Below, in pieces: positions 5,653 through 56,276 of a stretch of 64,000 nt of DNA. The DNA comes from Thermogladius sp. (GTDB taxonomy: Archaea > Thermoproteota > Thermoprotei_A > Sulfolobales > Desulfurococcaceae): the NCBI GenBank assembly GCA_022759365.1, contig JAEMPJ010000007.1, forward strand, positions 9,372 to 73,371, in the 5' to 3' direction. How positions within the stretch are numbered: position 1 is the stretch's first letter; each line of letters begins with the position of its first letter. The notes beneath the pieces were generated by a model. That model saw only the letters and a program-made list of their open reading frames with translations, was not told where the DNA came from and searched no databases. The translations under genes and the position numbers were made by a program.

Positions 5653-5656
5653 ACCC

Positions 5657-13097: not shown

Positions 13098-13104
13098 ACC
13101 ACCT

Positions 13105-13542: not shown

Positions 13543-13583
13543 TGGGATACACCTGTAAGCACTCGATCCAGATATGCCTGTGT

Positions 13584-15410: not shown

Positions 15411-16320
15411 TGATCAAATCCTCGTCTTCAGGATTCTTCAATAAGACCACTCTACCTGCTTCAACAAGCTCTTCTCTACCAGCTTTCTCCAGCCCCCTGA
15501 TCTCGGCTAGTAGAGATGTCAACGTCATCCACATAACGCTGTCCGATATACCAGGCTTGTATACAGCCTTCTGCCTCAACGTTCTAACAATAGACAGTGC
15601 CTCCTCAACCAGCTTGGGGTCAAGCCTCTTAGCTAGGTCTCCTAGCCTAAGCTTGATGATCTCGAGCTCTTCTTCAAGCGACGGGTACTTGAACTCTATT
15701 CTGACGACCCGTCTAAGGAACGCGTCGCTGAGCTCGCCTTGGCCAATGTCGTAGGGGTTGCTGGTTAATATGATCTGGAACCCCTCGTCTTTCTGATAAT
15801 AGACTTTCTTCAACTCGGGTATTATGATCCTCCTCTTGTCTATTATGTCGAGGAGCATGTTCTGGAACTCCTCGCTACTCCTTCTTATATCGTCTATTAA
15901 TACGCCAGCGCCTAGTATCATGGCCGCTAGAAGCGGCCTTGGTATAAAGCTCTCCTCGTTAAACCCCTTGCTTACAGCCATAGCTGGGTGGAAGTCCCCT
16001 ATAACCCGGTACTCATCGTAGTTTTCACTACATGGAAGCACGAAAGCAGACTTCCCGCTCCATAAGCTGAGTATAGCCTCACCTATCTCGGTCTTACCTG
16101 TACCAGGAGGCCCCTCGAAGAGGACAGGCCTGTTGTTCAGGAAAGCCGCCACCGTGAGATACACGACATGGGGTTTGACAACTAGCTTGAAGTAGTCCCT
16201 CAAATACTTCAGCATCTCAGGCGGGCTTCTCACAACTGGATATCGGCGAATCGTCTGGAGGTATATCTCCTGTACTTTACTCACGATTAAGTCAACGTTG
16301 CCGCTGCTACTCGAAGCCAT
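15382..16320 (-). CDS. MoxR-like / AAA_5-like AAA+ ATPase
   Basis: Walker A FEGPPGTGKTE, Walker B GVLIDDIRR, sensor-1 ILTSNP, and Arg region DAFLRRV. Single AAA+ module of 312 aa. Confidence 0.7.
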   Translation of the reverse strand: MASSSSGNVDLIVSKVQEIYLQTIRRYPVVRSPPEMLKYLRDYFKLVVKPHVVYLTVAAFLNNRPVLFEGPPGTGKTEIGEAILSLWSGKSAFVLPCSENYDEYRVIGDFHPAMAVSKGFNEESFIPRPLLAAMILGAGVLIDDIRRSSEEFQNMLLDIIDKRRIIIPELKKVYYQKDEGFQIILTSNPYDIGQGELSDAFLRRVVRIEFKYPSLEEELEIIKLRLGDLAKRLDPKLVEEALSIVRTLRQKAVYKPGISDSVMWMTLTSLLAEIRGLEKAGREELVEAGRVVLLKNPEDEDLINELLPARER

Positions 16321-16382
16321 CCCGACCAGAACCTAGGGGAGGTTGGGTAGTGCTATCTAGAAATTAGGTTTCGGTGAAAAGG

Positions 16383-17099
16383 CTATTTACCCTTTCTTCT
16401 ACCGGTCCTCCTAGCCGCTATATGCCCGACTTTCCTACCAGGCGGAGTATTCCTGGCAACTGTCGTCGGCCTGCCGACATGCCTCCCACCGCCGTGGGGG
16501 TGTGATGCCGGGTTCATTGCTAGACCTCTCACTTTAGGCCACTTGTGTGCTTTAGCCTTCCACTTGTAGTAGGAGGCCCCGGCTTTTAGGAGCGGTTTCT
16601 CAATTCTACCCCCGCCTGCGACAACCCCTATCATAGCCCTAGAGTTGTTCGAGACCTCCACCACTCGCCCGCTAGGCAACTGTATCTGCGTTTTATCGCC
16701 TGATCTACCCACTATCACAGCATATGTGCCACCCGCCCTCGCGTATCTACCCCCGTCGCCCGGGTTCTTCTCTATGTTGGCTACCTGTGTACCCTCAGGT
16801 ATCCTACCCACGGGTAGGATGTTCCCGTTCTTTATCTTAGCATCTGGGCCTATTTCGATGGTCTGGCCGACATACATGCCCTCCACTGCCGGGACGTAGA
16901 ATATGTCGCCTGTCTCCAGCTTTATCACGGCTAAGGGAACCCACCTGCCCGGGTCGTGGACTAGGTCTATTACCTTCCCTTTAAGAGTCTTGTCAGCCGG
17001 CAACTGGGGGTATTTCGCCGGGGCTACCCTGAGGTGGCCCGGGCTCCTGAAGGTGGGGGAGCCCCTGCCCATTCTCTGCGGTAGTATCCTTTTACCCAT
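16383..17099 (-). CDS. rpl2: 50S ribosomal protein uL2
   Basis: [21 protein letters not shown] and a basic C-terminus. Confidence 0.95.
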
Positions 17100-17109
17100 T
17101 TAACCCACC

Positions 17110-17382
17110 TCACAGCAACCCTAGTTGAGTGGCTACATCACTAGCCTTAAACTCGCTCGACAGCTTTACATACGCCTTCTTCTCTCCTCTAGGAGTGATC
17201 AAAGTATTAACCTTAACTACCTTAACGTTGAAGAGCTTCTCGACAGCTTCCTTAATAAGGGCTTTACTCGCATTTCTATCCACGATAAAGACCAGTGTAT
17301 TATTCTTATCAATGAGCGTCAAAGCTTTCTCGCTGTGTACAGGCCTAATTATCACTTTCGCCAGCTTGTCCAGCTCGCTCAA
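17110..17382 (-). CDS. rpl23: 50S ribosomal protein uL23
   Basis: Position L4-L23-L2, with [31 protein letters not shown]. Confidence 0.9.
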
Positions 17383-18197
17383 AACACCACCACCTCAAAC
17401 TTCCTCCCTATTTCCTCCAGCGCTTTCTTCGTGAAAACAGTAAGCCTACCGGGTACTCCCCCGGGAGCCAGGTGCAACACGCTGAGAGTGCCGGGTGTGG
17501 CCACGTCAACTCCAGGCAGGTTTCTCACCGCCTTGGCTATCGGCTTGTCAGTACTGGACACTACGAAGAGTATGCTCTTCGGCTCAACATACCTCCTCCC
17601 CCTCATCTTGCCCTTCCCAGCCCTGATCCCGATCCCCTCCCTACTCCTCTCTACATCACTCCACAAGCCTAGTTTAACCAGTAGCTCCCTGGCCTTCTTA
17701 GTTGAGTCGACAGCCTCCTCGGCGCTGTCGGCTAGGACTATGGGGAGGGACTTCGCGTCGAATACGTGCCCTCTCCTCTTGACGAGGTCTACGATGCTGG
17801 TCGCCGCGAGAGCGCTTGCGAGAGCCAGAGCGTTCTCCTTCCTGTTGATCCTCTCTTCTAAAACTCTGTCCGGCGTAGGTGGGAAAGCCGCGTGGCCTCC
17901 CCTAGCGCTCACGACGAACCTCGCTCTACCATTGGGGTTCCTTGGGACTCTCGCCAGGCCGTGCCCTACGCCCCAGCTGTACGCCGTGGTCCTCTTGCCT
18001 GCAAGGGGGTCTCTACCCTTTGGTTGCAACCTTGATGTGAAGGCGGCGAGAAAGGCCCTTCTAATCAAATCCCCTCTAACAGGCACCTGGAAGACTGGTG
18101 GAAGCTCGACCTCGCCGACCTGGCTGCCATTCTCGTCGAAGACTATCGCCTTCTTCTTCTCAACCGACAGGGGTTTAACAACTAACTGCCACGTCAT
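17379..18197 (-). CDS. rpl4: 50S ribosomal protein uL4
   Basis: Position L3-L4-L23, with the ...GHGLARVPR...ARGGHAFPP pattern. Confidence 0.9.
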
Positions 18198-18199
18198 CT

Positions 18200-19390
18200 C
18201 TAAGCACCCTGCTTGCTCTCAAGGCTTAGATAAGTTATCTGCGGGGGTGTTAAGGGCAACCAGCCCAACGGTGGTCTAACGGGGTGTCTTAGCATGAGAA
18301 CTCTCTTCACAGGCCCTATCACGCTCCCCTTGATCAAGAGGTAGGGGCCGTATATCAAACCGTAGTGGAGGAAGCCTCCCTCGGGGACGACTTCAAGGCC
18401 GTTCATCCCTATCTTCAGGATCCTCTTATTCAGCTCAGTCCTCCTGTGGAAGCCTGTCTGACCTGCCTGAGGCGGCTCGCTCATAGTGCCGAAGCCAGGG
18501 CTCCTCGCGCCGATCTTTCTACTACCCTTCCTGTGCTTATGCCACCTCGGAAGCTCTTTTACTCCAAACCTCTTTATAACGCCCTGGAAGCCCTTCCCCT
18601 TTGTTACACCTATAACGTCGACCAACTGTCCCTCTAGGAATACATCTGATACAGTTACGAAGCCTCCTGTAACCTTCTCTGCGTATGAAGTTAGCTCATC
18701 TATTTTACCTCCCCCAACCCTGATCTCGAATATCTCGGGCTTCTTCTTGCCGATCCCCGAGAATATAGGCAACGTTGATACAATTAAGCTTACTGCTTTG
18801 ATCTCCCCTGACAAAACCTGTTTAACCCTGTTTTCGAAGTCCGTCTCAATAAACTTGAACCCGTACTCGCCTCCGGGGTCAGGTTTCACGAGACCGTGGT
18901 TAACCTTCCTTAACCCCGCGAGGTACTTCCTGACGATTTCCTTGGCGGAGTATTGCTTGAAGAACGGGCTGTCCTTGTAAAACTTCTCGAATACCTCGAT
19001 AACCGCGTTTACAGGGCTTCTCCAAGCCTCCCCCTGGGTCTTCAAGGCACCTCCTTCAGCAACGTAGGTTCTCAAGCCTAACACTACGATAGGCGGGGCG
19101 TCCAGTATCGTGAGCGGCGTGAAAACGGGTTTACCGGTTAGAGGGGTGCGGGGCCTGTCCTCGACTACAAGGGCGTGGGACATCCCAGCCTTGTATACTG
19201 GGAAGCCTAGCAACATGGGTCTCCTAGCGATATTGAGCTTCTCGACTTCACTACCATACCTTTCCGCAAGTACCTCAATCCACGTCTTCGCAGGCCACGT
19301 CCTCACGCGTACGGTTAACTCGCTAGCCCTCTTCCTCGGCCTGACACCCAGGCTACCGTGTCTCGGCGCTTCTAGTTTTCTATGACCCAT
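18200..19390 (-). CDS. rpl3: 50S ribosomal protein uL3
   Basis: [16 protein letters not shown]-terminus and [17 protein letters not shown] motif. Confidence 0.95.
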
Positions 19391-20308: not shown

Positions 20309-20392
20309 CTATTTACCCTTCTCCTTCCCCTTCTCAGAGGCCTCCTCGGGCTTCGCCTTCTTCTCGCTTGACACTTTCTTCTCCTTAGTCAT
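20309..20392 (-). CDS. Candidate 27-aa Lys/Glu-rich micro-ORF (MTKEKKVSSEKKAKPEEASEKGKEKGK)
   Basis: ATG start. The stop lies 1 nt before the TTG start of the SPOUT gene. There is no homology evidence. Confidence 0.2.
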   Translation of the reverse strand: MTKEKKVSSEKKAKPEEASEKGKEKGK

Positions 20393-20503
20393 GAAGATGG
20401 TTGTCCTCTGCCTGCCACCCACACGACTCACCCTAGGCTAGTGAGAGTATGTTTGGCTTATTAAATTCTCTGCGGTTTCAGATACGACCGCACACATCAC
20501 AGC

Positions 20504-22141
20504 TCAGGATGCTCGCCGTTCATCACTGTCTGCATGTATAGGGCTTCTAACCTTAAATACAACCGGGTGCGGGTCTAGGGCGTTAAGGAAGAATGCTTCC
20601 CCAACACCGAGCCTGCTGAGCTTACCAGCTAGATCCTCGGCTTCCAGGCCCAGCATCCCAGCCGCGTCCCGCGCGTACTTCTCGTTGGGGGAGCCGAATA
20701 TAATCACTAGGTGAGCGTTCTCGACCACCTCCCTGGGGAGGTCGCTCGGGTTCTGAGTGGAGAGAACCATGCCCACCCTCCTACTCCTACCCTCCTTGAA
20801 GAGCTCCGCTACCAGCCTAGATCTCGATATCCTCCAAGCCTCGTCCACGACGATAAGCCGTATGTCGCTGGTACCCCTCTGGAAAAAGGTCTTCCGAGCC
20901 AGGTATAGTAGTATTAGCCCGTAGGCTGTCTGATAGGCGTACCCGTAGTTGCCCAAGTTGGCTAACACGTTGTCACTCATAATCAATTCAGCTAGATCCT
21001 TATGTCTAGAATCCCTTCCCAGGAACTCAAGTATCGGTAGAATGTCTGCTCTTACATGGCTGATGACGTCGCCAGCGGTGATCGTAGAGTAAACGTATTC
21101 AACCGACTCCATCAAAATCTCTCTCGGCACCTGGAGAGACGAAGACAGGAGGTCTGCTAGAAGGCCTTTGGCCTCAATGCTGGAATCAAACAGCCCTCTG
21201 ACCGATAACGGGTATTCCCTGGGCTCTATTATCCTCGCGATACCTTTCTCCATGTAGGCGGCTAGATCACCCTTGAAGTCCACAGCAAGGAATAAGCCGG
21301 CTCCAACTGAGAAAAAGCCCTCGAGCAACCTAGCGAGGAGAGTTGTCTTACCCCTCCCCGTGGGACCTATCACAATCATGTGTTTTAGAAGCATGTCTAC
21401 GGGTACCACTACAGGGGTACCGTCCTCCGCTTCAACACCAAGCAGTATAGCGTCCTCGTAGTCGGCGCGCGGCTTCTTAACCGCTGGGGCGGGTAGAACC
21501 GGTGCCACAGCGTTTACCGGCCCTATGAAGCTCTTGACGTCTAAATCGTTGGATAGCCCGAGCTCGTAGGCCAGGATCCTCCCGAGCTCTCTTCCAGCCT
21601 CCCTAATCTTCAACCCGAGAGTAGACCTGAAAACGTTGGAGATTATTGATGAGTGGTATGAGAGTATCTGCTTAGCCTCCTCAGTCGTGTTCGCTTCAAC
21701 CCTGATCTTAACGATAAACGATAGCCTCAGCAACGGCTTGCCTTCTACAATCATTTTATAGAGCTCGCTGAGATTGCTCAGCCTGGCTTCCAACCTCGTC
21801 TTCAAGAAGGGTTCGCTTGCTAGCTCCATGGAGGCCTTGATATTGGCCATCTCATTTTCAAGTTTTCTAAGAAAAGACGTTAAGTCGAGTTTAAACTTAA
21901 TTATCTTAACCTCGCTACCGTGCGGGAGTTTATCGATGACCGAGGCTAGTCTTTCAACGTTATCATACAGTTTCACAGGGCTTAAACTCCTAACATCGAG
22001 ATCCATCTCCTCCCCGATCAAGTAGCGTATACCCGTAACCTTGCCTCGGTTAATATAGAATAAGTCCGGCGGCTCTACTCTAACCTCACCCGCCTGCGAG
22101 ACCCTCGCCAATAAGGCTTTAATATCCCTCAATCTTACCAT
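20504..22141 (-). CDS. VirB4/HerA-superfamily ATPase, CedB-like
   Basis: Walker A VIGPTGRGKTTLL, Walker B IRLIVVDEAWR, and AVDFKGDL after the P-loop. It is last in an operon with three membrane proteins. Confidence 0.65.
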   Translation of the reverse strand: MVRLRDIKALLARVSQAGEVRVEPPDLFYINRGKVTGIRYLIGEEMDLDVRSLSPVKLYDNVERLASVIDKLPHGSEVKIIKFKLDLTSFLRKLENEMANIKASMELASEPFLKTRLEARLSNLSELYKMIVEGKPLLRLSFIVKIRVEANTTEEAKQILSYHSSIISNVFRSTLGLKIREAGRELGRILAYELGLSNDLDVKSFIGPVNAVAPVLPAPAVKKPRADYEDAILLGVEAEDGTPVVVPVDMLLKHMIVIGPTGRGKTTLLARLLEGFFSVGAGLFLAVDFKGDLAAYMEKGIARIIEPREYPLSVRGLFDSSIEAKGLLADLLSSSLQVPREILMESVEYVYSTITAGDVISHVRADILPILEFLGRDSRHKDLAELIMSDNVLANLGNYGYAYQTAYGLILLYLARKTFFQRGTSDIRLIVVDEAWRISRSRLVAELFKEGRSRRVGMVLSTQNPSDLPREVVENAHLVIIFGSPNEKYARDAAGMLGLEAEDLAGKLSRLGVGEAFFLNALDPHPVVFKVRSPIHADSDERRAS

Positions 22142-22247
22142 GAAGGAACACCAACAGGAGGGTGAGTGTTAGGCCTGTTGCGAGTAGGATGAGGCCTGTA
22201 GAACCGTGCTCCTCGATGAATGAGAGCACGGACATTATTAAAGTCAT
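22119..22247 (-). CDS. Candidate 42-aa single-TM protein (MTLIMSVLSFIEEHGSTGLILLATGLTLTLLLVFLHGKIEGY), absent from the ORF track
   Basis: Manual translation of the gap between the polytopic membrane gene and the ATPase. Purine-rich GGAGATTGGAGAAGG lies upstream. The ORF overlaps the ATPase start by 23 nt. Confidence 0.35.
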   Translation of the reverse strand: MTLIMSVLSFIEEHGSTGLILLATGLTLTLLLVFLHGKIEGY

Positions 22248-22273
22248 GCATACTATCGCCTTCTCCAATCTCC

Positions 22274-23638
22274 TCATGGGCCGAACACCATGACTCTTGA
22301 AATCCTCGCTTCGACACCACCCAGTAGCTTGGCTAGCCCCAGCGTCGCTGAAACTAATATTAGAATGTACACTACCGGGAGCACGAGGAGCCTGAAAAAC
22401 GTCAGGGAGACCAGGCTAACCGCAAGAGGCATAACCGATCCTTTTTCAACAGTGGTCTCGAGGTATGAGACCTCGCTTACATCCGGCTTAGATATGTTGA
22501 GCTCTCCGACTTGGACAGTCAGGGTGTGCACGCCGGGGCTTAAATCCGCTGTAAAAGCCTTGTAGTCCACGCCAAACCACTCGAAGGAAGTCTCGTATCC
22601 TCCACTTCCACCACCGTCCACTGATATTACTAGGCTACTCCCCTCCTCGTAGACAACGTATACTTTAGTGTTGTATAAGACGTCGAACACGACTGTGAGC
22701 GTTCCATTAACTCTGCTAATGTTCTCGACAATGGCTTCATCAGTATTGTAGTATATGAAGTGGTTTACATTAATGGAGATTACGTTGGGAACCCTGTACG
22801 TCAGGTTGAGCGGTTTCGAGCCCTGGGTTATATTAGCTTCAACAGTGTACTTCGAGCCGGGCAGTAGGAAGTCCAACACCTGGGGGCCAACAGGGATCCA
22901 TTTATCTATAGAGGTGGCGTTCACAACCCCGTTTGAATCACTCAGATACGTGTACAGCAGGTTGCCTTCCAGGTCGGTGGAGTTTAAAACGAAGTAGGCC
23001 ACGGGGTTGCCCACTAGGTCGACTAGGCTTATGAGCGCTGGCTCCCCCTGGATGAGCTGTTGATCGGGCGGGGTCACCGTCGAGAACAAGGATATGAAGG
23101 AGGGCAGGAAGGGGGCCCCGATGGTGAAGACTATTGGCAACGCGATCAACACAGCGCCGGCCGGCCTCGTCAGCCTGAAGGGTACTGAGTAGAGGAGTAG
23201 GCCGACCGCGATCAGGGTCTTCGCCGTCGCGTATATGACGCTGACCGCTAGGTAGAACACCGTGACCGTCACGAGCACGTCTATGAGCAGGCTCACTAGA
23301 GGCGAGATCAAACCTGACGCGAGGAATCCAAGCCCGATCTTATTGTAGATAAAGCCTATGGTCTTCAAGACCAGGAAAAGCGTTGTCAGGGCTGCTGCCT
23401 CAGCGATATACCATGCGTTGAAAGCATCCCAGTTGGATCCCAGCAATGAGCTGAAGTAGGAGATACTGTACACTAAACCCTTGTAGCTGAACACTAGGAA
23501 AGCCGAGAAAACGCCGTCCACCATGAGCCTCGAGCCAAGCTTCTTGATAGACACCAGGGGTATGGGTAGACCCCTTAAAGCGGCGCCTAGGACGTAGGTT
23601 AGTATAGACAAATAGTAGGCCAGGTAGAGGATGTCCAT
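22274..23638 (-). CDS. Polytopic membrane protein, CedA/VirB6-like, with a large predicted extracellular domain and a C-terminal TM anchor
   Basis: About 6-7 N-terminal TM helices. A ~230-aa beta-rich segment follows, with at least 7 N-x-S/T sequons (NST, NAT, NIT, NLT, NIS, NGT, NIS). Terminal hydrophobic helices are present. The N-terminus repeats the LRGLPIP..IKK.G....DGV motif of the upstream small protein. Confidence 0.55.
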   Translation of the reverse strand: MDILYLAYYLSILTYVLGAALRGLPIPLVSIKKLGSRLMVDGVFSAFLVFSYKGLVYSISYFSSLLGSNWDAFNAWYIAEAAALTTLFLVLKTIGFIYNKIGLGFLASGLISPLVSLLIDVLVTVTVFYLAVSVIYATAKTLIAVGLLLYSVPFRLTRPAGAVLIALPIVFTIGAPFLPSFISLFSTVTPPDQQLIQGEPALISLVDLVGNPVAYFVLNSTDLEGNLLYTYLSDSNGVVNATSIDKWIPVGPQVLDFLLPGSKYTVEANITQGSKPLNLTYRVPNVISINVNHFIYYNTDEAIVENISRVNGTLTVVFDVLYNTKVYVVYEEGSSLVISVDGGGSGGYETSFEWFGVDYKAFTADLSPGVHTLTVQVGELNISKPDVSEVSYLETTVEKGSVMPLAVSLVSLTFFRLLVLPVVYILILVSATLGLAKLLGGVEARISRVMVFGP

Positions 23639-23647
23639 CTAAAACCC

Positions 23648-23947
23648 CTATGGCGTTGGGGGCGGGGGCAACGGCTGGTAGACCGCTGAGGCGATGTAGG
23701 AGACAAGGGCGAACACGCTGCTCCCCACAGCGAGCCAGAACGCTGCCCAGACGCCGTCCTCGAGAATCTTCTCACCCGTCTTCTTAATCCTAGTGGAGGG
23801 TATAGGCAGCCCCTTCAACGCCCAGCCGACAACCCAGGATAAGAAGAATAGTGCCCACGCTACTACAACGACCTGCACTGTTACGTTTTTCACGAATTCA
23901 ACAAGATCCATTTTACAACCCGTTTTAAGCGGGTAGCTAACATTCAT
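23648..23947 (-). CDS. Small two-helix membrane protein, CedA1/VirB2-pilin-like
   Basis: Hydrophobic helix, then loop LKGLPIPSTRIKKTGEKILEDG, then a second hydrophobic helix and a Pro-rich tail. First gene of the cluster. Confidence 0.5.
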   Translation of the reverse strand: MNVSYPLKTGCKMDLVEFVKNVTVQVVVVAWALFFLSWVVGWALKGLPIPSTRIKKTGEKILEDGVWAAFWLAVGSSVFALVSYIASAVYQPLPPPPTP

Positions 23948-24012
23948 GACTCCTAGCCGAAACTAACGAGGCGAAGCGGGCTTATTAGAGGGTTTAAACT
24001 AAATCACAATGC

Positions 24013-26037
24013 TTGAGATCGCCTCCAGTGATGCGTTGTATGCCGAGGACATGGCCTAAAGTAGCTAAAATCTACTGGGATCCCTACGACGACCTCCCGG
24101 TTATACAGCCGAGGCAGGACGAAATAGACCTATACTACGTTCTCAGGTTAACGGAGCCGGGGGACGCTAAGATAGCTAGACCCGGTGATCTGGCTAGGCT
24201 GAGGGAGACTGTTGTCAACGAGTTCGGTAGCGACAAGGTGTACAAGGCTCTATTCGAGGACAGGGTTGTCTTATTCAACAAAGTCCCCCACTGGGACTTG
24301 ATGTGGGAGGTCGCTTCTTCGGGTAATGTCTGGGGCCAACTCTACTTCAATCCGTTCATCGACTCGTGGAGGTTCAGGCTCAGCTACCATGGGGCATACG
24401 AGGTTTTGGATAAAGGGCTCGTAGACTATGTTAAAGTAGACTCAAAACACTTCTACACGGACATGCCCGTCAACCCGCCTTCAACCAGCCAGAGAAGCAT
24501 CGTGGTTCTCGACTACAAGGGGAGGATCAGGGGTTTAGCGGAGAAGGTTGACGGCCGGTTCATTATAACAAAAATATTCTACGACCAGCGCCCTCCCGTC
24601 GAGACTAGCAGGAAGCCTAGCAGTATCCAAGATGTAGTGAAGAAGAATATCGAGGGCTTAGTAGCGCTTGAGGAGAAGTCTATCAGACACCTCCTTAAAG
24701 TTCACAGAAGGTACAACTATAAGCCTGTCGTCTCCTACTCAGGCGGGAAAGACAGCCTGGTCAGCCTACACCTGGCGGTGAAAGCGTTTGGAAGCGTAGA
24801 CGTGTTGTTCAACGACACGGGTTTAGAGCTACCTGAGACGCTCAAAAACGTCGAGGAGGTCTCGGGGAAGTATGGTCTAAACCTTGTGACGGCATCGGCT
24901 GGAAACATGTTTTGGAGCGCTGTCGAGACTTTCGGCCCTCCTGGAAAGGATTACAGGTGGTGTTGCAAAATAATAAAGCTGGTGCCTATAGCGAAGACCA
25001 GTAGAGTGAAATGGCCTAACGGAGCCTTGAACATTGTGGGGCAGAGAGCATACGAGTCTCTCGACAGGGCGAAGAGCCCTGTTTTATGGAGGAATAAATG
25101 GATCCCCCACGTCGTGTCCACGACGCCGATCCAGGAGTGGAGCCAGCTCTCGATATGGCTCTATATCTACGCGAACAACCTCCCCTACAATAAACTCTAC
25201 GACAGGGGTTTCGCTAGGCTGGGATGCTACTTGTGCCCATCCAGCTACCTAGCCGAGTTCAAAGATGTTTCAACACACTACCCGTGCCTCTGGGAGAGGT
25301 GGGTTGAAGTCCTAGAACGCTGGAGGAGGAGGTTGAACCAGCCAGAGGAGTGGGTCAAGTATGGATTGTGGAGATGGCTTACACCAGCATCTGCCAAAAA
25401 GAGGATTTCAAAGAGAATACCCGGCTATGTGATCGACTGGAGGAGGGAATACGTGTCCAGGCTACTCTCCAGCGAAGCAAGATTAGCCCCTTTAAAGGTC
25501 GAGAGAGAAGGGGGCTCCGCGAGAATACTGTTCAACGACGTCATAATCGACGACGAGTCACAACAGGTCTTCTCCGAGAACATTAGGATGCTCGCCTCCA
25601 AGGTATGGCGTGAAGGTGAAACAGTGTTCGTCGAGTCGAAGAACACCCGTATCCGCATAGCCGGGGACACGATGTTCGTCGAGCCGTTTACGAGGGATGA
25701 AAACATAGAGGATCTGGCAGACGTCCTGAAAGTGATTTATAGGATTAGATCGTGTGTTAAGTGTGCTAGCTGTATTTTATGGTGCCCGCTGAACGCTATA
25801 AAAATGACCCCTAAAGGCCCCTTGCCCAGGACGCCTTGCCTCTCCTGCAAACTATGCATTGACACATGCCCCCTAGCCGACCAGCTTGTCGAGAAGGTCG
25901 TTATCCCACTTATACTAGACAACCCGAAGGCGTTCAAACGGGCCTCGAGGAGACATAGCGACCATATCCTGGCGTTGTTCAGCAAACTGTACAAGCTGTC
26001 TAAAGGCGGTAGAGAGGCTTCTAGTGGTCTCGGCTAA
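24013..26037 (+). CDS. PP-loop ATP pyrophosphatase (PAPS reductase family) with an N-terminal PUA-like region and a C-terminal 2x[4Fe-4S] ferredoxin domain
   Basis: PP-loop VVSYSGGKDSLVSLHL, YRWCCKIIK motif, and C-terminal CVKCASCILWCP...CLSCKLCIDTCP. Confidence 0.7.
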   Translation: MRSPPVMRCMPRTWPKVAKIYWDPYDDLPVIQPRQDEIDLYYVLRLTEPGDAKIARPGDLARLRETVVNEFGSDKVYKALFEDRVVLFNKVPHWDLMWEVASSGNVWGQLYFNPFIDSWRFRLSYHGAYEVLDKGLVDYVKVDSKHFYTDMPVNPPSTSQRSIVVLDYKGRIRGLAEKVDGRFIITKIFYDQRPPVETSRKPSSIQDVVKKNIEGLVALEEKSIRHLLKVHRRYNYKPVVSYSGGKDSLVSLHLAVKAFGSVDVLFNDTGLELPETLKNVEEVSGKYGLNLVTASAGNMFWSAVETFGPPGKDYRWCCKIIKLVPIAKTSRVKWPNGALNIVGQRAYESLDRAKSPVLWRNKWIPHVVSTTPIQEWSQLSIWLYIYANNLPYNKLYDRGFARLGCYLCPSSYLAEFKDVSTHYPCLWERWVEVLERWRRRLNQPEEWVKYGLWRWLTPASAKKRISKRIPGYVIDWRREYVSRLLSSEARLAPLKVEREGGSARILFNDVIIDDESQQVFSENIRMLASKVWREGETVFVESKNTRIRIAGDTMFVEPFTRDENIEDLADVLKVIYRIRSCVKCASCILWCPLNAIKMTPKGPLPRTPCLSCKLCIDTCPLADQLVEKVVIPLILDNPKAFKRASRRHSDHILALFSKLYKLSKGGREASSGLG

Positions 26038-28810
26038 TGTACTCTTTAACCATTAGGAATCTCTTCTCGCTCTCATATATTTCTTGGATGAGATCACCGC
26101 CCCTGGCAACACTATTCAATATCCTGGCCGCCTCGTGGGCTCCAACCCCTCTAGCAGATAAAGCAAGCAAGGCATCCTTCTTGAACCTGTAGAGCAGTGT
26201 AGCCCTCTTGCTCAGTTCATCCAGCAATTTATCCTCGTCGCTGTTAAGCCTCTCACCCTTCTTCAATTTATTGACGAGGCCGAGCTCTCTTGAAATATCG
26301 CGTCCTTTAACAAGGGTTAGAGTCGCCTTACCGCACTTCGGGCAGTTAAACTCTTTCTTATCCAGGAAGTCTGCTACAGTCCCACTCTTGTAATAACCAC
26401 AGCTCAAGCATAGTAGCGTTACCTTACGCGATAGAAGCTTAGAGAGGTAAGCCTCTTGATCGAACACTATGCCTTTGAATATGGGAACCTCTATATATTC
26501 TAAGATTTCTCGGTGGAATTCGTTTATTCTCTCCGACACCCTCCCCTCAACTCTGACCACACCCTTCTCAATAAGCTCCGAGAGCTCTTGTGCTGATCTA
26601 ACGTCGTAGTCTTTAGCTAGAACCTCCTTGAACGCTTCCCTCCCGATCACGGTGTCAACGAATGCCTGGAGCAGCGCGTTGCTCACTCTCTCTACTTCGG
26701 GGGATATAGCGCCGAACCTCTGGGCCACCTGGTATATCCGCCATAGAAGGGTCTTACTCTCCCTTACAGCTCCTGCTAGGAACTCCCCGCTAACAAACTT
26801 TTTAAGGTTTTTGAAGAAACCGAGGATGTCTTTCTGCAACAACCCTAGGTCGGTGTTTCCAGCTCTGATCACAATAGCGTAAGGGGTTGAATACGCTCTT
26901 ACTTTCGCAAGCGGGTTTGTCTTCTTGATATAATATGATAATAGGTCTTTAAGCATCAAGTTTAGTTTAGAGCCGCCGAACACGTTTACAAATATGACAC
27001 CCAACGGGACAACATAGTCGACGACTATCGTCTTGTCGTTTCCAAAAAGCCGGGCCACCTCAGTCCTGAGATCTGCTTTTAAGCCATACTCCTCCCTCAA
27101 TTTCTCGACCTCGCCTCTGGCCAGCCTCCGCAACACGCTCCCAACCTCTCTGGCAACCTTGTATTCAACAGGTATATTCTCGCCTTCCCAGAAGGGTACT
27201 ACAGCCTCATCTGTCGGCGCTGCCACTTTCTCCACATACAGTTTGTTCTCGCTTTCGGCATACGATAGGATTTTCCAAACACTCCCCGCAAGAACCAAGA
27301 AGTCCCCTGGCTGGATATTTAGAACCACGTAGTCCTCATCTAAGGCTCCGACTCTTCTGCCGGTAACATCGAATACGTTGATCTCCCTTGTTGAAGGTAT
27401 CATAGAGGTCTTGTAGACATGGAGCCTCGTCTTACGGGTGGGTTTTATGATCCCGGACTCCAACTTCACTATCCTACTGTACTCCAGGTAATTCACCACA
27501 TCCATGAAGTCTTCGTATGATAAGTCTTTGTATAAAGCGTTCTGGACTATATCCGCGTAAACCTTGCTTACATTAATCCCCCGGGGGTTCACCAGGGAGT
27601 ATACTGCTAGAGCATACGATAATACGTCCAGGGGGGAGGTGTATATCTCCTCTTCTTCAAGGATGTTTCTCACAGCTCTTTTCGCTAGCACGATAGACTC
27701 CAAGTAGTGTAGGAGGTTGCTCGTCGATACAATACTACCGCGCGCCACACCACCTAGCTTATGCCCGCTTCTACCAATCCTCTGAACAAGCCTTGTCACC
27801 TGCCTCGGCGACAAGTACTGTACCACATAGTCCACCCTACCTATGTCGATACCGAGCTCTAGGCTCGATGTAGCGACCACCGCCTTTATCTCCCCGTTCT
27901 TAAACCTCTTCTCCACCTCCTCCCGGTGCTCCCTTGAGAGGCTGCCGTGGTGTACACCTATATTGACCTCGTACCCGAGCCTCTCGCTAATCGAGTTCAA
28001 GAGGTTGCTCAAGTACTCGGCCATAGTCCTGGTGTTGGTGAAGACGAGGACTCCCCCGCTCCCAGCGATTTTCTCCAATATGTACATGGCTCTCGCAACA
28101 ACCCTCTCATCCCCTATGTACTTAGCCAGCTCCTTGCATTTCCCGGTGCAAGAAGGGGTTTCCACCTCTATCTCGTAGCTCTTACTTCCAACATCTCTTA
28201 CAACCTCTGTGGGGAGCTTGTTGACCGAGGAGAGGATTTGCCTCACAGAGTTCTCGTCACTTAGAGTCGCCGTCAAGCCTATTATAACCGGTCTCACACC
28301 TATGTAGTTTAGGACGAGATAAAGCACTGTGAGTAGGAGTAGGCCCCTCTTACTCTCGATAATCTCGTGGAGCTCATCTAAGACCACGAATTTAAGGTTA
28401 GACAACTTCTTCAACAAGTCCTCGTTTAAGAGAATGTAATTGAGTGTCTCTGGTGTTGTAACAAGTACTTGGGGAGGGTTTTTCTGGATGGCCTTCCTAG
28501 CGTGGTAGGGTGTATCGCCGTGTCTCAACGCGACGCTCACGCCAAAACACTCCGCTATCCTGCTTATCCTCTCAGCTATATCCCTGTTCAACGCTCGGAG
28601 AGGAGTGATGTATACACAGGAGATAGGCTCGCTTCTCAACCTTGAAATAGAGTAGAAGACTGGCAGGATAGCTGCCTCTGTTTTGCCCACGCCGGTTGGG
28701 GCCACTATAACGACGTTGAAGCCCCTCCCAGCTATCTTCTTAAAAGCCTCTTTCTGCAGAGCTGTAAACTCTCTATAACCAAGCCTACGTAGACAGTCTG
28801 GCAAACTCAT
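26021..28810 (-). CDS. lhr: Lhr-like large superfamily-2 (DEAD/DEAH-type) helicase
   Basis: Motif I APTGVGKTEAA, motif II VLDELHEI, motif VI QRIGRSGH, and a C-terminal Zn ribbon CLSCG...CPKCG. Length 929 aa. Confidence 0.75.
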   Translation of the reverse strand: MSLPDCLRRLGYREFTALQKEAFKKIAGRGFNVVIVAPTGVGKTEAAILPVFYSISRLRSEPISCVYITPLRALNRDIAERISRIAECFGVSVALRHGDTPYHARKAIQKNPPQVLVTTPETLNYILLNEDLLKKLSNLKFVVLDELHEIIESKRGLLLLTVLYLVLNYIGVRPVIIGLTATLSDENSVRQILSSVNKLPTEVVRDVGSKSYEIEVETPSCTGKCKELAKYIGDERVVARAMYILEKIAGSGGVLVFTNTRTMAEYLSNLLNSISERLGYEVNIGVHHGSLSREHREEVEKRFKNGEIKAVVATSSLELGIDIGRVDYVVQYLSPRQVTRLVQRIGRSGHKLGGVARGSIVSTSNLLHYLESIVLAKRAVRNILEEEEIYTSPLDVLSYALAVYSLVNPRGINVSKVYADIVQNALYKDLSYEDFMDVVNYLEYSRIVKLESGIIKPTRKTRLHVYKTSMIPSTREINVFDVTGRRVGALDEDYVVLNIQPGDFLVLAGSVWKILSYAESENKLYVEKVAAPTDEAVVPFWEGENIPVEYKVAREVGSVLRRLARGEVEKLREEYGLKADLRTEVARLFGNDKTIVVDYVVPLGVIFVNVFGGSKLNLMLKDLLSYYIKKTNPLAKVRAYSTPYAIVIRAGNTDLGLLQKDILGFFKNLKKFVSGEFLAGAVRESKTLLWRIYQVAQRFGAISPEVERVSNALLQAFVDTVIGREAFKEVLAKDYDVRSAQELSELIEKGVVRVEGRVSERINEFHREILEYIEVPIFKGIVFDQEAYLSKLLSRKVTLLCLSCGYYKSGTVADFLDKKEFNCPKCGKATLTLVKGRDISRELGLVNKLKKGERLNSDEDKLLDELSKRATLLYRFKKDALLALSARGVGAHEAARILNSVARGGDLIQEIYESEKRFLMVKEYISRDH

Positions 28811-53598: not shown

Positions 53599-55257
53599 GT
53601 GGTGAATGTGACTGTAGAGCCAACAGGTATCCCTGTGTTGATACTGAAGGAAGGCACCCAGAGGACTGCTGGTAGAGATGCCCTGCGCACTAACATAATG
53701 GCTGCTAGAGCTGTCGCCGAGATGATTAAAACAACGTATGGGCCTAAGGGAATGGATAAAATGCTGGTTGACGCCCTGGGAGATGTAACTATAACAAACG
53801 ACGGCGCGACAATCCTAGATAAAGCTGAGATACAGCACCCAGCCGCCAAAATGCTTGTTCAAGTAGCTAAGAGCCAGGACAACGAGGTTGGAGATGGGAC
53901 TAAAAGAGCTGTCGTCTTCGCCGGCGAGTTGCTGAAGCAAGCCGAGGAGCTCCTGGCAAAGAACATCCATCCAACAGTTATTGTAAGCGGCTACAGGAAA
54001 GCTATGGAGGAGGCCCTGAAACTACTCGACCAGATAGCCCAGCCGATAGATATAAACAATGAGGATCTACTGAAGAAGATCGCTAAAACATCTCTAACGA
54101 GTAAGGCTGTCCACGACGCTAGAGACTACTTCGCGGAGATAGCTGTTAAAGCCGTTAAACAGATCGTCGAGAAGAGAGGGGATAAGAACTACATAGACTT
54201 AGACAACATCCAGATCATCAAGAAGTACGGAGGTGCCCTACTAGACTCGACGCTAGTCTACGGCGTAGTACTAGATAAAGAAGTCGTCCACCCAGGTATG
54301 CCCAGGAGGGTTGAGAACGCTAAGATAGCCCTACTGGACGCGGCGCTTGAGGTGGAGAAGCCGGAGATAACAGCTAAGATAAACATCACCAGCCCCGAGC
54401 TAATGAACGCTTTCCTAGAGGAGGAAGCCAAGATCCTGAAGGACATGGTGGAGAAGATCGCCGCTACTGGCGCTAATGTTGTTATAACGCAGAAGGGTAT
54501 TGACGAGGTTGCCCAGCACTTCCTGGCGAAGAAGGGTATTCTAGCCGTGAGGAGGGTGAAGAGGAGCGACCTCGAGAAGCTTGAGAGGGCGACGGGAGGT
54601 AGAATAGTGAGTAACATAGAGGATCTGAAGCCAGAAGACCTAGGTTATGCCGCTGTAGTCGAGGAGAGGAAGATTGGAGAGGACAAGATGGTGTTCGTGG
54701 AGGGATGCAAGAACCCGAGGGCTGTCAGCATTGTCATAAGAGGCGGCTTAGAGAGGCTCGTAGACGAGGCGGAGAGGAGTATAAGAGATGCCTTGTCAGC
54801 TGTGGCAGACGTCATAAGAGACGGTAAGATCGTTGCGGGCGGTGGAGCCGTCGAGGCGGAGCTTGCCAAGCACATTAGGAGGTTCGCTACGAAGGTGGGT
54901 GGAAAAGAGCAACTATCCATCGAGGCCTTCGCTAAAGCGCTAGAGGGCTTGGTTGTCACACTAGTCGAGAACGCTGGCTTAGACCCAGTCGATATTATAA
55001 TGAAGCTTAGGGCCGCCCACGAGAAGGAGGATGGTAAGTGGATTGGTGTAGACTTGAACACAGGCGACTTCGTGAACATGATGGAGAAAGGCGTGATAGA
55101 GCCTGTTAGCGTGATAGCTAACGCTATCAAAGCCGGTACCGAAGCCTCGACGATAATCCTAAGGATAGATGATGTAATAGCGGCTAGTAAGGCCAAGGAG
55201 AAAGGCGCTGAAACAGGCAAGAAGCCGGGCGAAGAGGAGAAGAAGGAGGAAGACTAA
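53599..55257 (+). CDS. ths: Thermosome (group II chaperonin) subunit
   Basis: [38 protein letters not shown] and a Lys/Glu-rich C-tail. Confidence 0.95.
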
Positions 55258-56276
55258 ACTATTCTAACCAACAACGGTTTTTTATAAAAACTTGAAAACA
55301 ATACCGCCTCTCCTTTATCCATATAGGGCAGTATCTCCCTGATCTCGCCAGTCATGTTGACAACCTTATCTAATACCTCGAGATCCACAGCCGATTTAAT
55401 CGAGTGAACTATCTTGGTCGACGTGTTAGCCATCACGTCTTCAACAAGCGCTGAAGGTGATTGCGAGACTATTACAAGGCCTACGCCAAATTTCCTAATC
55501 TCATCCAGCATTTTTACAAGTATCTCAACGTAGTTGTCCCTGCCGAGCAGGTTACGTGCTTCCTCAACCACTATTAGAAGCCTCCTCGAGTTAAAACCCC
55601 CTCTAAGGGCTTTATCGAAGATCTTTTTAAGGAAGGCCGCCACGTAGACCCTCCTTATAGCTAGGTCGCCTATCTTGGATAAGTCTATTACTAGAGGCCT
55701 GTTAGAGCCCACCTCGAGATCGGGGTCGCCACCGCTAAAGAGATCCTTATATCCTCCAATAGTCAGCCTCCTAAGTTTTCTCATAAGCGAGAGCCTGCTC
55801 TCCCTGAACCAGGCTGACTCATCGGGCATACCCTCAAGCGCCTCAACGAGGTCTGAGATGTCCAGATCCTCCTCCCCTCCGAGGGATTCAAGGCTTTTCA
55901 ACAGGACGTACTCTTGGGCTGGTGTCAAACCTAGCACTTGGCTGGCGAATTCCACTGAGTAGTACCCTTCCTCCCTGCTTAGTAGCGTTATAGGGAGTTG
56001 GAATGGATCCTTCACCTCCGGGTCGCGGAGCAAGCTACTGTACTCTCCATGCCAGTCCAGGATTAGGGGTTTGAAGAACACCGAGTAGTCTCCCTCGGTA
56101 AGCCTGTTTACTATTGTAGCCACGGTGAATGTCTTCCCAGTGCCAGTAGCACCCGTCACCAGTGTATGCTTGTTCAAGTCCTCAACTGGTATGCAGGCGT
56201 CGGCAGGCGGCGTCGAGTTAGCAACCTCCCCCACGACCACGCAGTCCCTGCTGGTATGCTCTCGGGTTTTAACCAC
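55254..56276 (-). CDS. Soluble HerA-like (DUF87) P-loop ATPase
   Basis: Walker [20 protein letters not shown], Walker [13 protein letters not shown]. Paralogous to the C-terminal half of 36962..38866. Confidence 0.65.

Follow-up and report, generated by a model that had tools for sequence, protein, structure and literature searches.

Four minus-strand ORFs (20504-23947) in a 64,000-nucleotide stretch (the window) of a Thermogladius MAG are labelled only "hypothetical" or "ATP-binding" in GenBank, and the question is which system they encode. An initial annotation described four co-directional genes forming a chromosomal Ced/VirB-type module of VirB2-, VirB6- and VirB4-like proteins. Both the four genes and the module are supported by the CedA1 family cut-off, the best NCBIfam families of CedA and CedB, the match to the pilin of PDB 8DFU, the predicted fold of CedB, and synteny. 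The gene order is cedA1-cedA-cedA2-cedB, and with high confidence we regard the region as a whole, vertically inherited Ced operon of a Thermogladius-like Desulfurococcaceae archaeon. The Ced pilus machine is a domesticated, conjugation-like system thought to import DNA for repair, and the locus is an ordinary, full chromosomal copy of this already described crenarchaeal system, previously unannotated. The under-described details that it brings into view are the predicted glycosylated outer domain of CedA, the conserved mini-protein CedA2, and a putative DNA-damage promoter element (Table 1).

Table 1. Features of the window discussed in the text
Feature	Position	Strand	Basis or remark
cedA1, VirB2-like Ced pilin, 87 aa from probable start Met13	23648..23911	-	Maximal ORF to 23947, 99 aa
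cedA, VirB6-like polytopic channel/platform protein, 454 aa	22274..23638	-	NCBIfam, phmmer
CedA residues 1-64, pilin-like helix-loop-helix, CedA1 paralog	23447..23638	-	BLASTP, hhalign
CedA residues ~190-402, predicted extracellular insertion, two beta-sandwich domains, followed by C-terminal TM helix (402-440)	22433..23071	-	AF2, DSSP
cedA2, 52-aa two-helix membrane hairpin	22119..22277	-	Overlaps cedA stop and cedB start
cedB, TM-less VirB4/HerA-superfamily ATPase, 545 aa	20504..22141	-	Walker A GPTGRGKT, Walker B VVDEAW
cedD-like ATPase, 340 aa, ATPase domain only, 31 kb from the operon	55254..56276	-	NCBIfam CedD NF053655
AGTTTC, putative DNA-damage-responsive element (DDRE, ANTTTC type), context cgTTAGTTTCGGctag	23959..23964	-	cedA1 promoter, 53 nt upstream of Met13 start
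Putative C/D-box sRNA over cedB 3' end	20476..20530	-	C box 20520-20526, D' box 20504-20507, C' box 20494-20500, D box 20478-20481
Conserved 37-aa protein, MGGRQRTTIFMTKEKK... and Lys/Glu-rich tail, putative Ced link	20309..20422	-	Between cedB and RNA methyltransferase

The ORFs abut or overlap, which gives the cluster its operon structure: cedA1 and cedA are separated by a 9-nt gap, the cedA2 start overlaps the cedA stop by 4 nt (ATGA), and the cedB start overlaps the cedA2 end by 23 nt. The start of cedA1 is probably Met13, giving a protein of 87 rather than 99 aa, because, apart from the window and its closest relative, no locus has the upstream ATG and each starts at the Met13 equivalent, and because the Aeropyrum pernix pilin aligns from residue 14. 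CedA1 passes the cut-off of NCBIfam NF041797 (120.3 bits versus 100) and matches the A. pernix Ced pilus (8DFU) with an E-value of 2.1e-24 and 49% identity over 78 aa, aligning from its first residues with the unprocessed A. pernix pilin. The gene has a dN/dS of 0.058. G18, P25, P27, and K32 of the helix-loop-helix that CedA1 shares with CedA are invariant among 66 orthologs, a conservation on which the initial annotation had let its reading depend.

The best NCBIfam family for CedA is CedA NF041796 (E 1.8e-39), with residues 2-186 aligned to positions 6-192 of the 259 in the model. The score of 135.9 bits is under the equivalog cut-off of 330; the model appears to be tuned to the 260-aa Sulfolobales proteins, with the TM core alone aligning. 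Using phmmer, CedA reached Sulfolobales clusters annotated 'DNA import protein CedA' (e.g., P0088 at E 6.5e-18), and its close homologs carry Pfam PF27251 (CedA1). The AF2 model of the protein has a pLDDT of 93.4. Paralogy between CedA1 and the CedA N terminus had been proposed from the sequence and was found by BLASTP (38% identity over 64 aa, E 6e-13) and by hhalign of the two families (98% probability, E 2.5e-13, 68 columns); the CedA family profile also matches the 8DFU pilin (E 2.2e-9). The channel does begin with a pilin-like module, as had been singled out in the initial annotation, but this feature is not new, having been published by Beltran et al. 2023. TrwI/VirB6 was neither among the best 50 Foldseek matches for CedA nor recovered by a profile search of PDB sequences, so the link between CedA and VirB6 rests on published work, namely the HHpred results of Beltran 2023 and the superpositions of Wu 2025.

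Ahead of the C-terminal TM helix, CedA contains a non-TM insert of ~210 aa. It is beta-rich in the AF2 model (pLDDT ~93), with DSSP strands across residues 201-377, and its Foldseek matches are generic only: transthyretin, CnaB, Ig-like pilin, and carboxypeptidase-regulatory-like folds. There are seven N-X-S/T sequons versus 2.35 expected from shuffles, of which a fraction of 0.0026 reached seven. This enrichment, together with an acidic composition and R/K at the cytoplasmic ends of the neighbouring TM helices, supports a location outside the cell. The insert diverges faster than the TM core (dN 0.068 versus 0.026). A ~230-aa beta-rich ectodomain with at least seven sequons and a C-terminal anchor had been predicted and set apart as not a known part of Sulfolobus CedA. 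The domain is real, at ~210 aa with seven sequons and a TM helix after it, and it is missing from 18 short Sulfolobales-type CedA proteins. It is not, however, peculiar to this locus: the phyletic profile, a check named beforehand, places it in 116 of 157 CedA cluster representatives outside Sulfolobales, where it is the majority form of the family. No paper describing the CedA ectodomain was found in the literature.

The gene between cedA and cedB had been taken for a 42-aa single-TM peptide. It encodes instead 52 aa with two hydrophobic helices (GenBank JHC12_01010), and a two-helix ORF of 50 to 64 aa is present at the same position in 34/34 loci that possess both cedA and cedB. Sulfolobales CedA2 proteins score 18 to 21 bits with an HMM built from these ORFs, whereas reversed sequences reach at most 0.8, 2000 shuffles at most 11.7, and real hydrophobic decoys at most 7.4 bits; 0.25% of architecture-preserving shuffles attain 18 bits. 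The Sulfolobales gene order is likewise cedA1-cedA-cedA2. Judged by sequence, homology of the 52-aa protein to Sulfolobales CedA2 thus holds against the decoy controls. CedA2 is kept in all 34 related loci, which is new and contrary to published statements; for A. pernix, CedA2 is stated in publications to be absent. A split VirB3-like segment is too simple a description of it, because CedA2 co-exists with a TM-bearing CedB in related loci L028 and L033.

For CedB, the best NCBIfam family is CedB NF041017 (E 1.6e-24), at 86.5 bits versus an equivalog cut-off of 700; aligned over their full length, the syntenic orthologs of L028 and L033 reach 217 and 163 bits, respectively. The Pfam domains detected are HerA_C and DUF87, and by sequence comparison with the PDB CedB is closer to HerA than to VirB4. 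The AF2 model (pLDDT 83) has a predicted fold nearest to TrwK/VirB4 over its full length, N-terminal domain included, the best Foldseek matches being R388 TrwK/VirB4 (7o43_B, 7o41_A, 8rtd; E 1.5e-16, TM 0.50-0.55, versus ~0.40 for HerA). The combination named in the initial annotation as speaking against it, a non-VirB4 HerA ATPase beside membrane proteins unlike Ced, is not what was found. Wu et al. 2025 classed Desulfurococcus with 'VirB4', not with CedB/CedD. The window also encodes a CedD-like ATPase that aligns with positions 199-525 of the 527 in NF053655 (225 bits, E 1.6e-66; the 600-bit cut-off is missed). Its nearest relatives are likewise short, at 332 to 371 aa, and it is a candidate for the second motor of the Ced system; in Sulfolobales, CedD is essential for import (PMC11868833, PMC11823120).

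Upstream of cedA1 lies a putative DDRE that matches the experimentally defined Orc1-2-bound consensus of S. islandicus, AATAGTTTCRG (PMC6061795). Of 36 non-identical loci, 30 carry the motif A[CG]TTTC upstream of cedA1 at a distance of 52 to 69 nt, with 0.145 expected per 130 nt, and no words are more widely shared than its k-mers among 31 upstream regions that otherwise cannot be aligned. The element precedes the TATA box at a fixed offset; in the window itself, a TATA box is hard to make out. In Sulfolobales the element is uneven, occurring in 1/4 loci examined, and none is reported for the S. acidocaldarius ced loci (Le 2017). Conservation of an Orc1-2-type damage element upstream of cedA1 is new and may serve as a sequence proxy for damage induction. 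At the other end of the operon, the D' box of a putative C/D-box sRNA contains the cedB stop codon. Its Rfam C/D-box matches are below threshold (sR3, E 0.024; sR9, 25.4 bits), and four Thermogladius genomes share the same boxes and the same two guides within flanks that diverge. The adjacent 37-aa protein belongs to no family in Pfam or NCBIfam and is a 'hypothetical protein' in the databases; by tblastn, it adjoins the ced genes at practically every locus of Desulfurococcaceae, Pyrodictiaceae, and Sulfolobales.

These components suggest how the system might work. The Orc1-2-type AGTTTC, located ahead of the core promoter, would switch the operon on after DNA damage. Homology to the solved A. 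pernix pilus shows CedA1 to be an unprocessed helix-loop-helix pilin, which is stored in the membrane and, together with lipids, polymerises into a narrow pilus of the conjugation-like type. By analogy with VirB6 and VirB4, CedA would provide the membrane platform and pore, its N-terminal hairpin mimicking a pilin subunit, and a TM-less CedB hexamer would dock on CedA, possibly via CedA2, to power pilin extraction and DNA translocation. The tight translational coupling implies stoichiometric co-production. Single-stranded DNA from a partner cell would then be imported for recombinational repair, probably with the assistance of the separate CedD-like ATPase, a step modelled on Sulfolobus genetics only. 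More speculatively, the glycosylated CedA ectodomain could form an extracellular collar or stalk for the pilus beneath the S-layer, a module for contact with the partner, or both, in lineages without Ups pili.

VirB2-, VirB6- and VirB4-like parts would also suit the remnant of an integrated conjugative plasmid or ICE with an export-type T4SS, a reading that the genomic setting effectively refutes and to which we give hardly any credence. The neighbours of the ced genes are Lhr, a PAPS-reductase-like protein, a SPOUT RNA methyltransferase, and uL3, and the order Lhr/PAPS-reductase-like/cedA1-cedA-cedA2-cedB/methyltransferase/uL3 is kept across Desulfurococcaceae, at a conserved position beside the ribosomal supercluster. 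Synteny extends over 37 loci, with cedB-methyltransferase-uL3 in 28 and the divergent PAPS-reductase-like gene in 24, so that the system is family-wide and sits at the same locus between the same housekeeping genes. As the initial annotation had argued in favouring a chromosomal machine, no integrase, relaxase or plasmid gene flanks the cluster; VirD4/TraG, an attachment-site tRNA and repeats are likewise absent from the locus, the sole tRNA being 5 kb away. The GC content is unremarkable and equal to that of the surroundings, divergence follows that of the neighbouring core genes, and all genes are under purifying selection (dN/dS 0.05-0.24). Conserved gene order and purifying selection thus indicate a fixed chromosomal system, not a mobile element.

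The ATPase might alternatively be a HerA-type enzyme of anti-phage defence or end resection beside unrelated membrane proteins, as its Pfam domains, PADLOC matches (mad8 at 60 bits, HerA at ~30 bits), and HerA-like PDB sequence matches would allow. These PADLOC and Pfam matches are generic to the ATPase domain and score under the CedB match, the fold is nearest VirB4, and an effector partner such as NurA or Sir2 is missing; PADLOC found nothing for the partner proteins, which are bona fide CedA1, CedA, and CedA2 translationally coupled to the ATPase. We consider this reading extremely unlikely. Somewhat less remote, though still improbable, is a Ced-derived pilus with a main role other than DNA import: attachment to surfaces, contact between cells, formation of biofilms or export of DNA, the CedA ectodomain being an adhesin. 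DNA import has been demonstrated in Sulfolobales only, CedA1 and CedE also influence export in S. islandicus, A. pernix forms Ced pili without UV induction, and the predicted folds of the ectodomain resemble the beta-sandwiches of adhesins and pilins. Against this stand the damage-response element kept upstream of the operon, the repair helicase Lhr as a conserved neighbour, the presence of a CedD-like translocase, and a pilin 49% identical to one whose pilus lumen fits ssDNA (PMC9905601). We favour a Ced operon for DNA import.

Compared with the Ced system of Sulfolobales (S. acidocaldarius, Sa. islandicus; CedA, CedA1, CedA2, CedB, CedD/CedE), the window encodes homologous CedA1, CedA TM core, CedA2, and CedB. 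Both systems are chromosomal and non-mobile, and the ANTTTC-type element at the cedA1 promoter is as in S. islandicus. The differences are that cedB is inside the operon here but at a separate locus in Sulfolobales, that the window CedB lacks N-terminal TM helices, that the CedD-like protein is encoded away from the operon and consists of the ATPase only, and that the 260-aa Sulfolobales CedA is without the ~210-aa extracellular insertion. In Sulfolobales the ced genes come after cmk, where the ribosomal supercluster has its distal end; those of the window lie at the uL3 end. Ups pili are absent from Desulfurococcales, according to the literature. A. pernix is of the same broad order as the window organism, and its pilin (8DFU; Beltran et al. 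2023) is also an unprocessed helix-loop-helix with a basic loop; in that study, the pilus alone was characterised. The Ted system of Thermoproteales (TedC/TedA/TedB) is another domesticated chromosomal VirB2/VirB6/VirB4-like DNA-transfer system, but no similarity of its proteins to Ced can be recognised in sequence, and its pilin, TedC, loses a signal peptide by cleavage (Beltran 2023). A Ted identity was rejected, the window proteins being Ced by sequence and the pilin of CedA1 type.

Among bacterial conjugative T4SS (R388 Trw, Agrobacterium VirB), the likeness is in the predicted CedB fold, the VirB2-like pilin, and the placing of a small membrane protein gene (cedA2) directly upstream of, and coupled to, the ATPase gene, as in virB3-virB4. 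No VirB1, VirB5, VirB7-11, VirD4 or relaxase is encoded in or beside the ced cluster, and bacterial T4SS export DNA, whereas Sulfolobus Ced imports it. F-plasmid TraG and 'extended VirB6' proteins join a VirB6-like polytopic domain to a large extracytoplasmic domain, which in F and SXT TraG functions in mating-pair stabilisation and entry exclusion. Such proteins may offer a functional precedent for the CedA ectodomain, although the CedA domain is inserted ahead of the last TM helix and that of TraG and 'extended VirB6' is appended.

The four tightly packed, co-directional ORFs that the initial annotation had read as a Ced/VirB-type module are present on the minus strand, and the region is a Ced (crenarchaeal exchange of DNA) operon, a known kind of system. 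A 9-nt gap after the first gene is followed by a 4-nt ATGA overlap and then a 23-nt overlap, which indicates a single, putatively translationally coupled operon, and the GC content of the cluster is the same as that of its surroundings. With NCBIfam models, the small protein was identified as CedA1 (120.3 bits against a cut-off of 100). The top family for the 454-aa protein is CedA (E = 1.8e-39, below the 330-bit cut-off, residues 2-186 aligned with model positions 6-192 of 259), with CedE second, and the top family for the 545-aa protein is CedB (E = 1.6e-24, 86.5 bits against a cut-off of 700), followed by CedD and HerA. Only HerA_C and DUF87 were assigned to the ATPase by Pfam, and PF27251, a newer Pfam family assigned to close homologs, carries the name CedA1. 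CedA1 is identical at 38 of 78 residues to the A. pernix Ced pilin solved by cryo-EM (PDB 8DFU, E = 2.1e-24). In GenBank, the 545-aa protein is 100% identical to "ATP-binding protein [Thermogladius sp.]", and JHC12_01015 (454 aa) and JHC12_01010 (52 aa) from the same MAG are both entered as "hypothetical protein"; the Ced label is absent from all of these records.

Features of the ced region and of related or neighboring genes (positions in the window unless a related locus from another genome, L038, L042 or L044, is named)
Feature	Position	Strand	Remarks
cedA1, maximal ORF	23648-23947	-	99 aa
cedA	22274-23638	-	454 aa
cedA2	22119-22277	-	52 aa
cedB	20504-22141	-	545 aa
DDRE-type motif AGTTTC	23964-23959	-	cedA1 promoter
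PAPS-reductase-like and Lhr genes	24013-28810	PAPS-reductase-like gene divergent from cedA1	PAPS-reductase-like protein 674 aa, with C-terminal 4Fe-4S ferredoxin domain
C/D-box sRNA	20476-20530	-	canonical: GUGAUGA, 12-nt guide, CUGA, GUGAUGU, 12-nt guide, CUGA
MGGRQ protein	20309-20422; L038 4931-5023; L042 3926-4021; L044 3921-4025	- (all)	30-37 aa
CedD-like ATPase	55254-56276	-	340 aa; NF053655, 225 bits, model positions 199-525 of 527
Soluble ORF preceding cedD-like gene	56348-56671	-	107 aa; ACTTTC at -51
634-aa protein	36962-38866	-	polytopic membrane domain (~250 aa) fused to HerA/DndH-like ATPase
ORF next after 634-aa gene	36645-36965	-	106 aa, acidic-then-basic low-complexity
MoxR-type AAA_5 ATPase and VWA_CoxE protein	13584-16320	-	312 aa and 608 aa; inside ribosomal protein cluster
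Cbf5 pseudouridine synthase, split	708-1781	-	ORFs 1503-1781 (DKCLD) and 708-1457 (TruB/PUA)

The small protein had been annotated as 99 aa long, and its CedA1 identity stands while its length does not. The ATG of the 99-aa form occurs only in the window and its 95%-identical relative, whereas no other locus has one, the frame upstream of the Met13 equivalent being either closed or without a start codon. In those loci the Met13-equivalent codon follows a Shine-Dalgarno-like GGTG element, and the alignment of the unprocessed A. pernix pilin with the window ORF begins at residue 14. CedA1 is therefore most likely a protein of 87 aa encoded by 23648-23911. The helix-loop-helix proposed to be common to CedA1 and the N-terminus of CedA was recovered by BLASTP (38% identity over 64 aa, E = 6e-13) and by family-level hhalign (98% probability, E = 2.5e-13, 68 columns), and the N-terminus in a profile of 66 CedA orthologs matches pilin 8DFU (E = 2.2e-9). 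The GLPIP..KK motif is conserved, with G18, P25, P27 and K32 invariant among the 66 orthologs. This pilin-like N-terminus, one of two features that the initial annotation had singled out, is already published.

The VirB4-type assignment of the ATPase is borne out by structure comparison. The AlphaFold model of CedB (pLDDT 83.2) is closest to TrwK/VirB4 of the R388 T4SS (E = 1.5e-16, TM 0.50-0.55), with structural alignments of 556-586 columns that include the N-terminal domain, ahead of HerA (E = 6e-15, TM about 0.40). A sequence search against the PDB returned only HerA-like chains at E < 1e-5. These matches agree with the literature, in which CedB consists of a HerA-clade ATPase domain and a VirB4-like N-terminal domain. 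Elsewhere in the window, the CedD-like ORF is an ATPase-only form without TM and N-terminal domains, since only the model positions listed in the table are aligned. Its nearest relatives are also short (332-371 aa), and more distant ones have 505-565 aa, some with TM helices and some without. Import in Sulfolobales strictly requires CedD (PMC11868833, PMC11823120). The motif upstream of the soluble ORF that precedes the cedD-like gene is not conserved across 50 related loci; several relatives of the cedD-like gene have a weakly similar upstream ORF. The 634-aa protein scored 87 bits with DndH in PADLOC and 56 and 49 bits with CedD and CedB in NCBIfam, and the "VirB4" that others ascribe to Desulfurococcus may be this protein.

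The candidate 42-aa single-TM peptide proved instead to have 52 aa and two hydrophobic helices, along with a polar turn and a C-terminus that is basic. In all 34 related loci that have both cedA and cedB, the gap between them is filled by a two-helix ORF of 50-64 aa, the stop of which abuts or overlaps the cedB start. Within the genus, identity of this gene is 38% and 13%, against 87% and 82% for CedA1, and because of its fast evolution tblastn with the small protein detects the nearest relative only. In Sulfolobales loci, fetched via clusters annotated as "DNA import protein CedA", the order is SecY-Adk-x-L34e-Cmk-cedA1-cedA, followed by a two-helix ORF of 51-52 aa that is often left uncalled as a gene. 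This ORF is CedA2, in agreement with the saci_0569/0568/0567 order (van Wolferen 2025). An HMM built from the Desulfurococcaceae ORFs alone scored 18-21 bits on three of the four Sulfolobales CedA2 sequences; reversed sequences reached at most 0.8 bits, 2000 shuffles at most 11.7 bits, and 115 real hydrophobic decoy ORFs of 40-75 aa at most 7.4 bits, and 0.25% of architecture-preserving shuffles reached 18 bits. The HMM did not match SecY, CedA or CedA1. Scores far above the controls, together with position, identify the 52-aa gene as a CedA2 homolog in the CedA2 position. The published view of CedA2 as lineage-specific needs revising, at least for Desulfurococcaceae and Pyrodictiaceae.

Two other origins were considered for the small ORF. 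Were it a split-off VirB3-like TM segment of CedB, fusing the two should improve the match to the NCBIfam CedB model, but the gain is only 2.3 bits, and two deeper loci (L028 and L033) carry a TM-bearing CedB as well as the small ORF, so a common origin with the CedB TM segment was rejected. A VirB3-like tethering role of CedA2 for the TM-less CedB is nevertheless plausible. The ORF could also have been a third pilin paralog, but hhalign against CedA1 and the CedA N-terminus gave no signal, like the reversed controls. For the cluster as a whole, the reading as a mobile element was rejected on the basis of its setting. In a scan of one genome per species, which returned 37 loci, the order cedA1-cedA-cedA2-cedB, SPOUT RNA methyltransferase (PF02598), uL3 and ribosomal supercluster was found in 28; integrase, relaxase and coupling protein genes are all lacking near the ced cluster, the only tRNA lies 5 kb away, and dN/dS of the ced genes is 0.06-0.12 overall, matching that of housekeeping neighbors. 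The proposal of a chromosomal machine over an integrated conjugative element is upheld by these data. A defense system was also rejected, as PADLOC gave generic ATPase matches only.

In Sulfolobales and Desulfurococcaceae alike, ced lies next to the ribosomal supercluster, but at opposite ends (related loci L038-L043 versus window 1-19390): in the former the genes follow cmk at the SecY/L34e end, and in the latter they precede the methyltransferase gene and uL3. The SecY/L34e end in the window continues L34e-Cmk-L14e-Cbf5. Crenarchaeal cbf5 genes are known to contain a bulge-helix-bulge intron, and the split of cbf5 here probably reflects such a putative intron. Within the supercluster, the MoxR/VWA_CoxE pair is inserted between uL2 (16383-17099) and uS19 (13105-13542). 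The C/D-box sRNA overlaps the last seven codons of cedB, the stop codon of which lies within the D' box. In four Thermogladius genomes, the flanking sequence varies but no base differs in the boxes or in either guide of the sRNA; its Rfam matches are below threshold. Between cedB and the RNA methyltransferase gene, the MGGRQ protein has the motif MGGRQ[RK]T[TS][IL]F.. with a Lys/Glu-rich tail. It is found beside ced in Desulfurococcaceae (in the same gap), Pyrodictiaceae and Sulfolobales, where the gene follows cedA2 on the opposite strand. Neither Pfam nor NCBIfam has a family for the protein, and databases name it only "hypothetical protein".

Of 36 non-identical loci, 30 have A[CG]TTTC 52-69 nt before the cedA1 start, against an expectation of 0.145 per 130 nt, and 22 have the extended A[CG]TTTCG (0.008 expected). 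In an unbiased k-mer count of 31 non-redundant cedA1 upstream regions, whose mean pairwise identity of 0.30 is at random level, the motif words TACTTT, ACTTTC, TAGTTT and CTTTCG ranked first and TATA words second. With C or T at its last base, the motif lies 14-18 nt upstream of the TATA box in 30/31 regions. The DNA-damage-responsive element (DDRE) of Sulfolobales has the consensus AATAGTTTCRGWDTACTCWS; Orc1-2 binds it, and the cedA1 promoter of S. islandicus needs it for induction by NQO (PMC6061795). The element occupies -44 to -39 relative to the TSS, with BRE/TATA downstream of it (PMC5817253). Judged from sequence, the conserved motif has the layout and sequence of this element. Among eight extended-motif sites in the 64 kb, the AGTTTC before cedA1 is the only one located in a promoter, although the TATA box of the window itself is not obvious. 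As a positive control, only one of the four fetched Sulfolobales loci has a DDRE, no DDRE was reported at the S. acidocaldarius ced loci (Le 2017), and the literature is split on DDREs at ced. The motif, which is by itself no evidence of expression, predicts damage-inducible ced expression. Immediately upstream in 24 of the 37 loci lie a divergent PAPS-reductase-like/4Fe-4S gene and then the gene for an Lhr-type repair helicase, and these neighbors, being conserved in at least 24 loci, could share a damage-responsive intergenic region with cedA1. The 674-aa protein is of the PRK13795 type, with weak similarity to DndC.

In CedA, a long non-hydrophobic stretch precedes a strongly hydrophobic segment at the C-terminus. 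In an AlphaFold2 model from a 66-sequence alignment (mean pLDDT 93.4), a helical TM core with helices to residue 185 is followed by strands at 201-377, which make up two beta-sandwich units at about 198-282 and 286-377. After these, a long TM helix spans 402-440, and the protein ends in a short basic tail. Alignment with 18 short CedA proteins places residues of about 190-402 as an insertion before the last TM helix. The non-hydrophobic stretch contains seven N-X-S/T sequons, compared with 2.35 ± 1.35 in composition-preserving shuffles (fraction reaching seven, 0.0026). Arg residues flank the TM helices entering (R155, R158, before) and leaving (R446, R449, after) the insert, and together with the acidic composition and sequon excess they fit a predicted extracellular location. 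A sequon-rich beta domain with a C-terminal anchor is real, as first described, but is not peculiar to this locus. An exhaustive search of 1.84 billion cluster representatives retrieved 157 CedA relatives, and 116 of them are at least 430 aa long, with a median 225-aa non-TM insert and then a C-terminal anchor. A further homology search for CedA reached close relatives only, and the clusters that were looked up yielded no names beyond Sulfolobaceae, Desulfurococcales, Pyrodictiaceae and unclassified Thermoproteota; all short forms that could be named (n = 24) are from Sulfolobaceae, and the named long forms are from Thermogladius, Staphylothermus, Thermosphaera, other Desulfurococcaceae and Pyrodictiaceae. 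The ectodomain is a property of most of the CedA family.

No specific fold family emerged for the ectodomain. Foldseek against PDB and BFVD found only generic beta-sandwich relatives with low TM scores (transthyretin/HIUase, CnaB, BcpA-type pilins, carboxypeptidase-regulatory-like domains and phage tail-collar fibers), the top PDB match being the SSV19 tail protein 7xdi_F (TM 0.14, rmsd 37 Å). Pfam places no family on it, some CedA orthologs are annotated "carboxypeptidase regulatory-like domain-containing protein", and no duplication between its halves was found at the sequence level. Between the window and its closest relative, the ectodomain accumulates non-synonymous changes 2.6 times faster than the TM core (dN 0.068 versus 0.026), although with a dN/dS of 0.24, against 0.05 for the core, it is still under purifying selection; G237, P249 and W354 are invariant or nearly so. 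The domain is apparently undescribed: neither a full-text search nor Beltran 2023, Wu 2025 and van Wolferen 2025 yielded a description, though an earlier mention in the 2016 PNAS Ced paper or in supplements is possible.

Homology shows that one conserved operon encodes a Ced pilin, CedA2, a VirB4-like ATPase and a CedA platform whose N-terminus is pilin-like. We infer that the operon would be induced after damage through the DDRE, that a CedB hexamer would dock on CedA/CedA2 and pull CedA1 out of the membrane to build a pilus that contains lipid, and that ssDNA import, assisted by the CedD-like ATPase, would be followed by recombination. More speculatively, the ectodomain might serve as an extracellular collar or stalk and/or as a partner-contact module in lineages without Ups pili. 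A wider reading, which we consider doubtful when its four parts are taken together, would hold that the "standard" Ced outside Sulfolobales is a single damage-inducible operon; that a glycosylated two-beta-sandwich ectodomain of the VirB6-like subunit replaces Ups pili or periplasmic T4SS parts in partner recognition, mating-pair stabilization or a VirB5/VirB8/VirB10 stalk role; that CedA2, and possibly the MGGRQ protein, are overlooked universal Ced components; and that the Orc1-2/ANTTTC damage regulon reaches Desulfurococcales and Pyrodictiaceae.

To our knowledge, Ced and Ted are the only conjugation machineries that cells have domesticated to import chromosomal DNA and for repair, and almost all functional studies of them that we know of come from Sulfolobales. 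The window locus and its 34 syntenic relatives show that Ced in its more widespread form departs from the version studied in model organisms. The new points are modest: CedA2 is conserved despite its lineage-specific label in the literature, a damage-response promoter element is conserved well beyond Sulfolobales, a TM-less cedB belongs to the operon, and the locus keeps a fixed position next to the ribosomal supercluster. Annotation pipelines miss the Desulfurococcaceae Ced genes, which are labeled "hypothetical protein". The features of the widespread form give concrete, testable leads on partner finding by archaea that lack Ups pili and on their assembly of a pilus through the S-layer. The F-plasmid TraG protein, which joins a VirB6-like domain to a periplasmic mating-pair-stabilization domain, offers a possible functional precedent for the CedA ectodomain. 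In contrast to Sulfolobales Ced, all core genes here form one operon, and the large surface domain of CedA of the window type is missing from its Sulfolobus counterpart.
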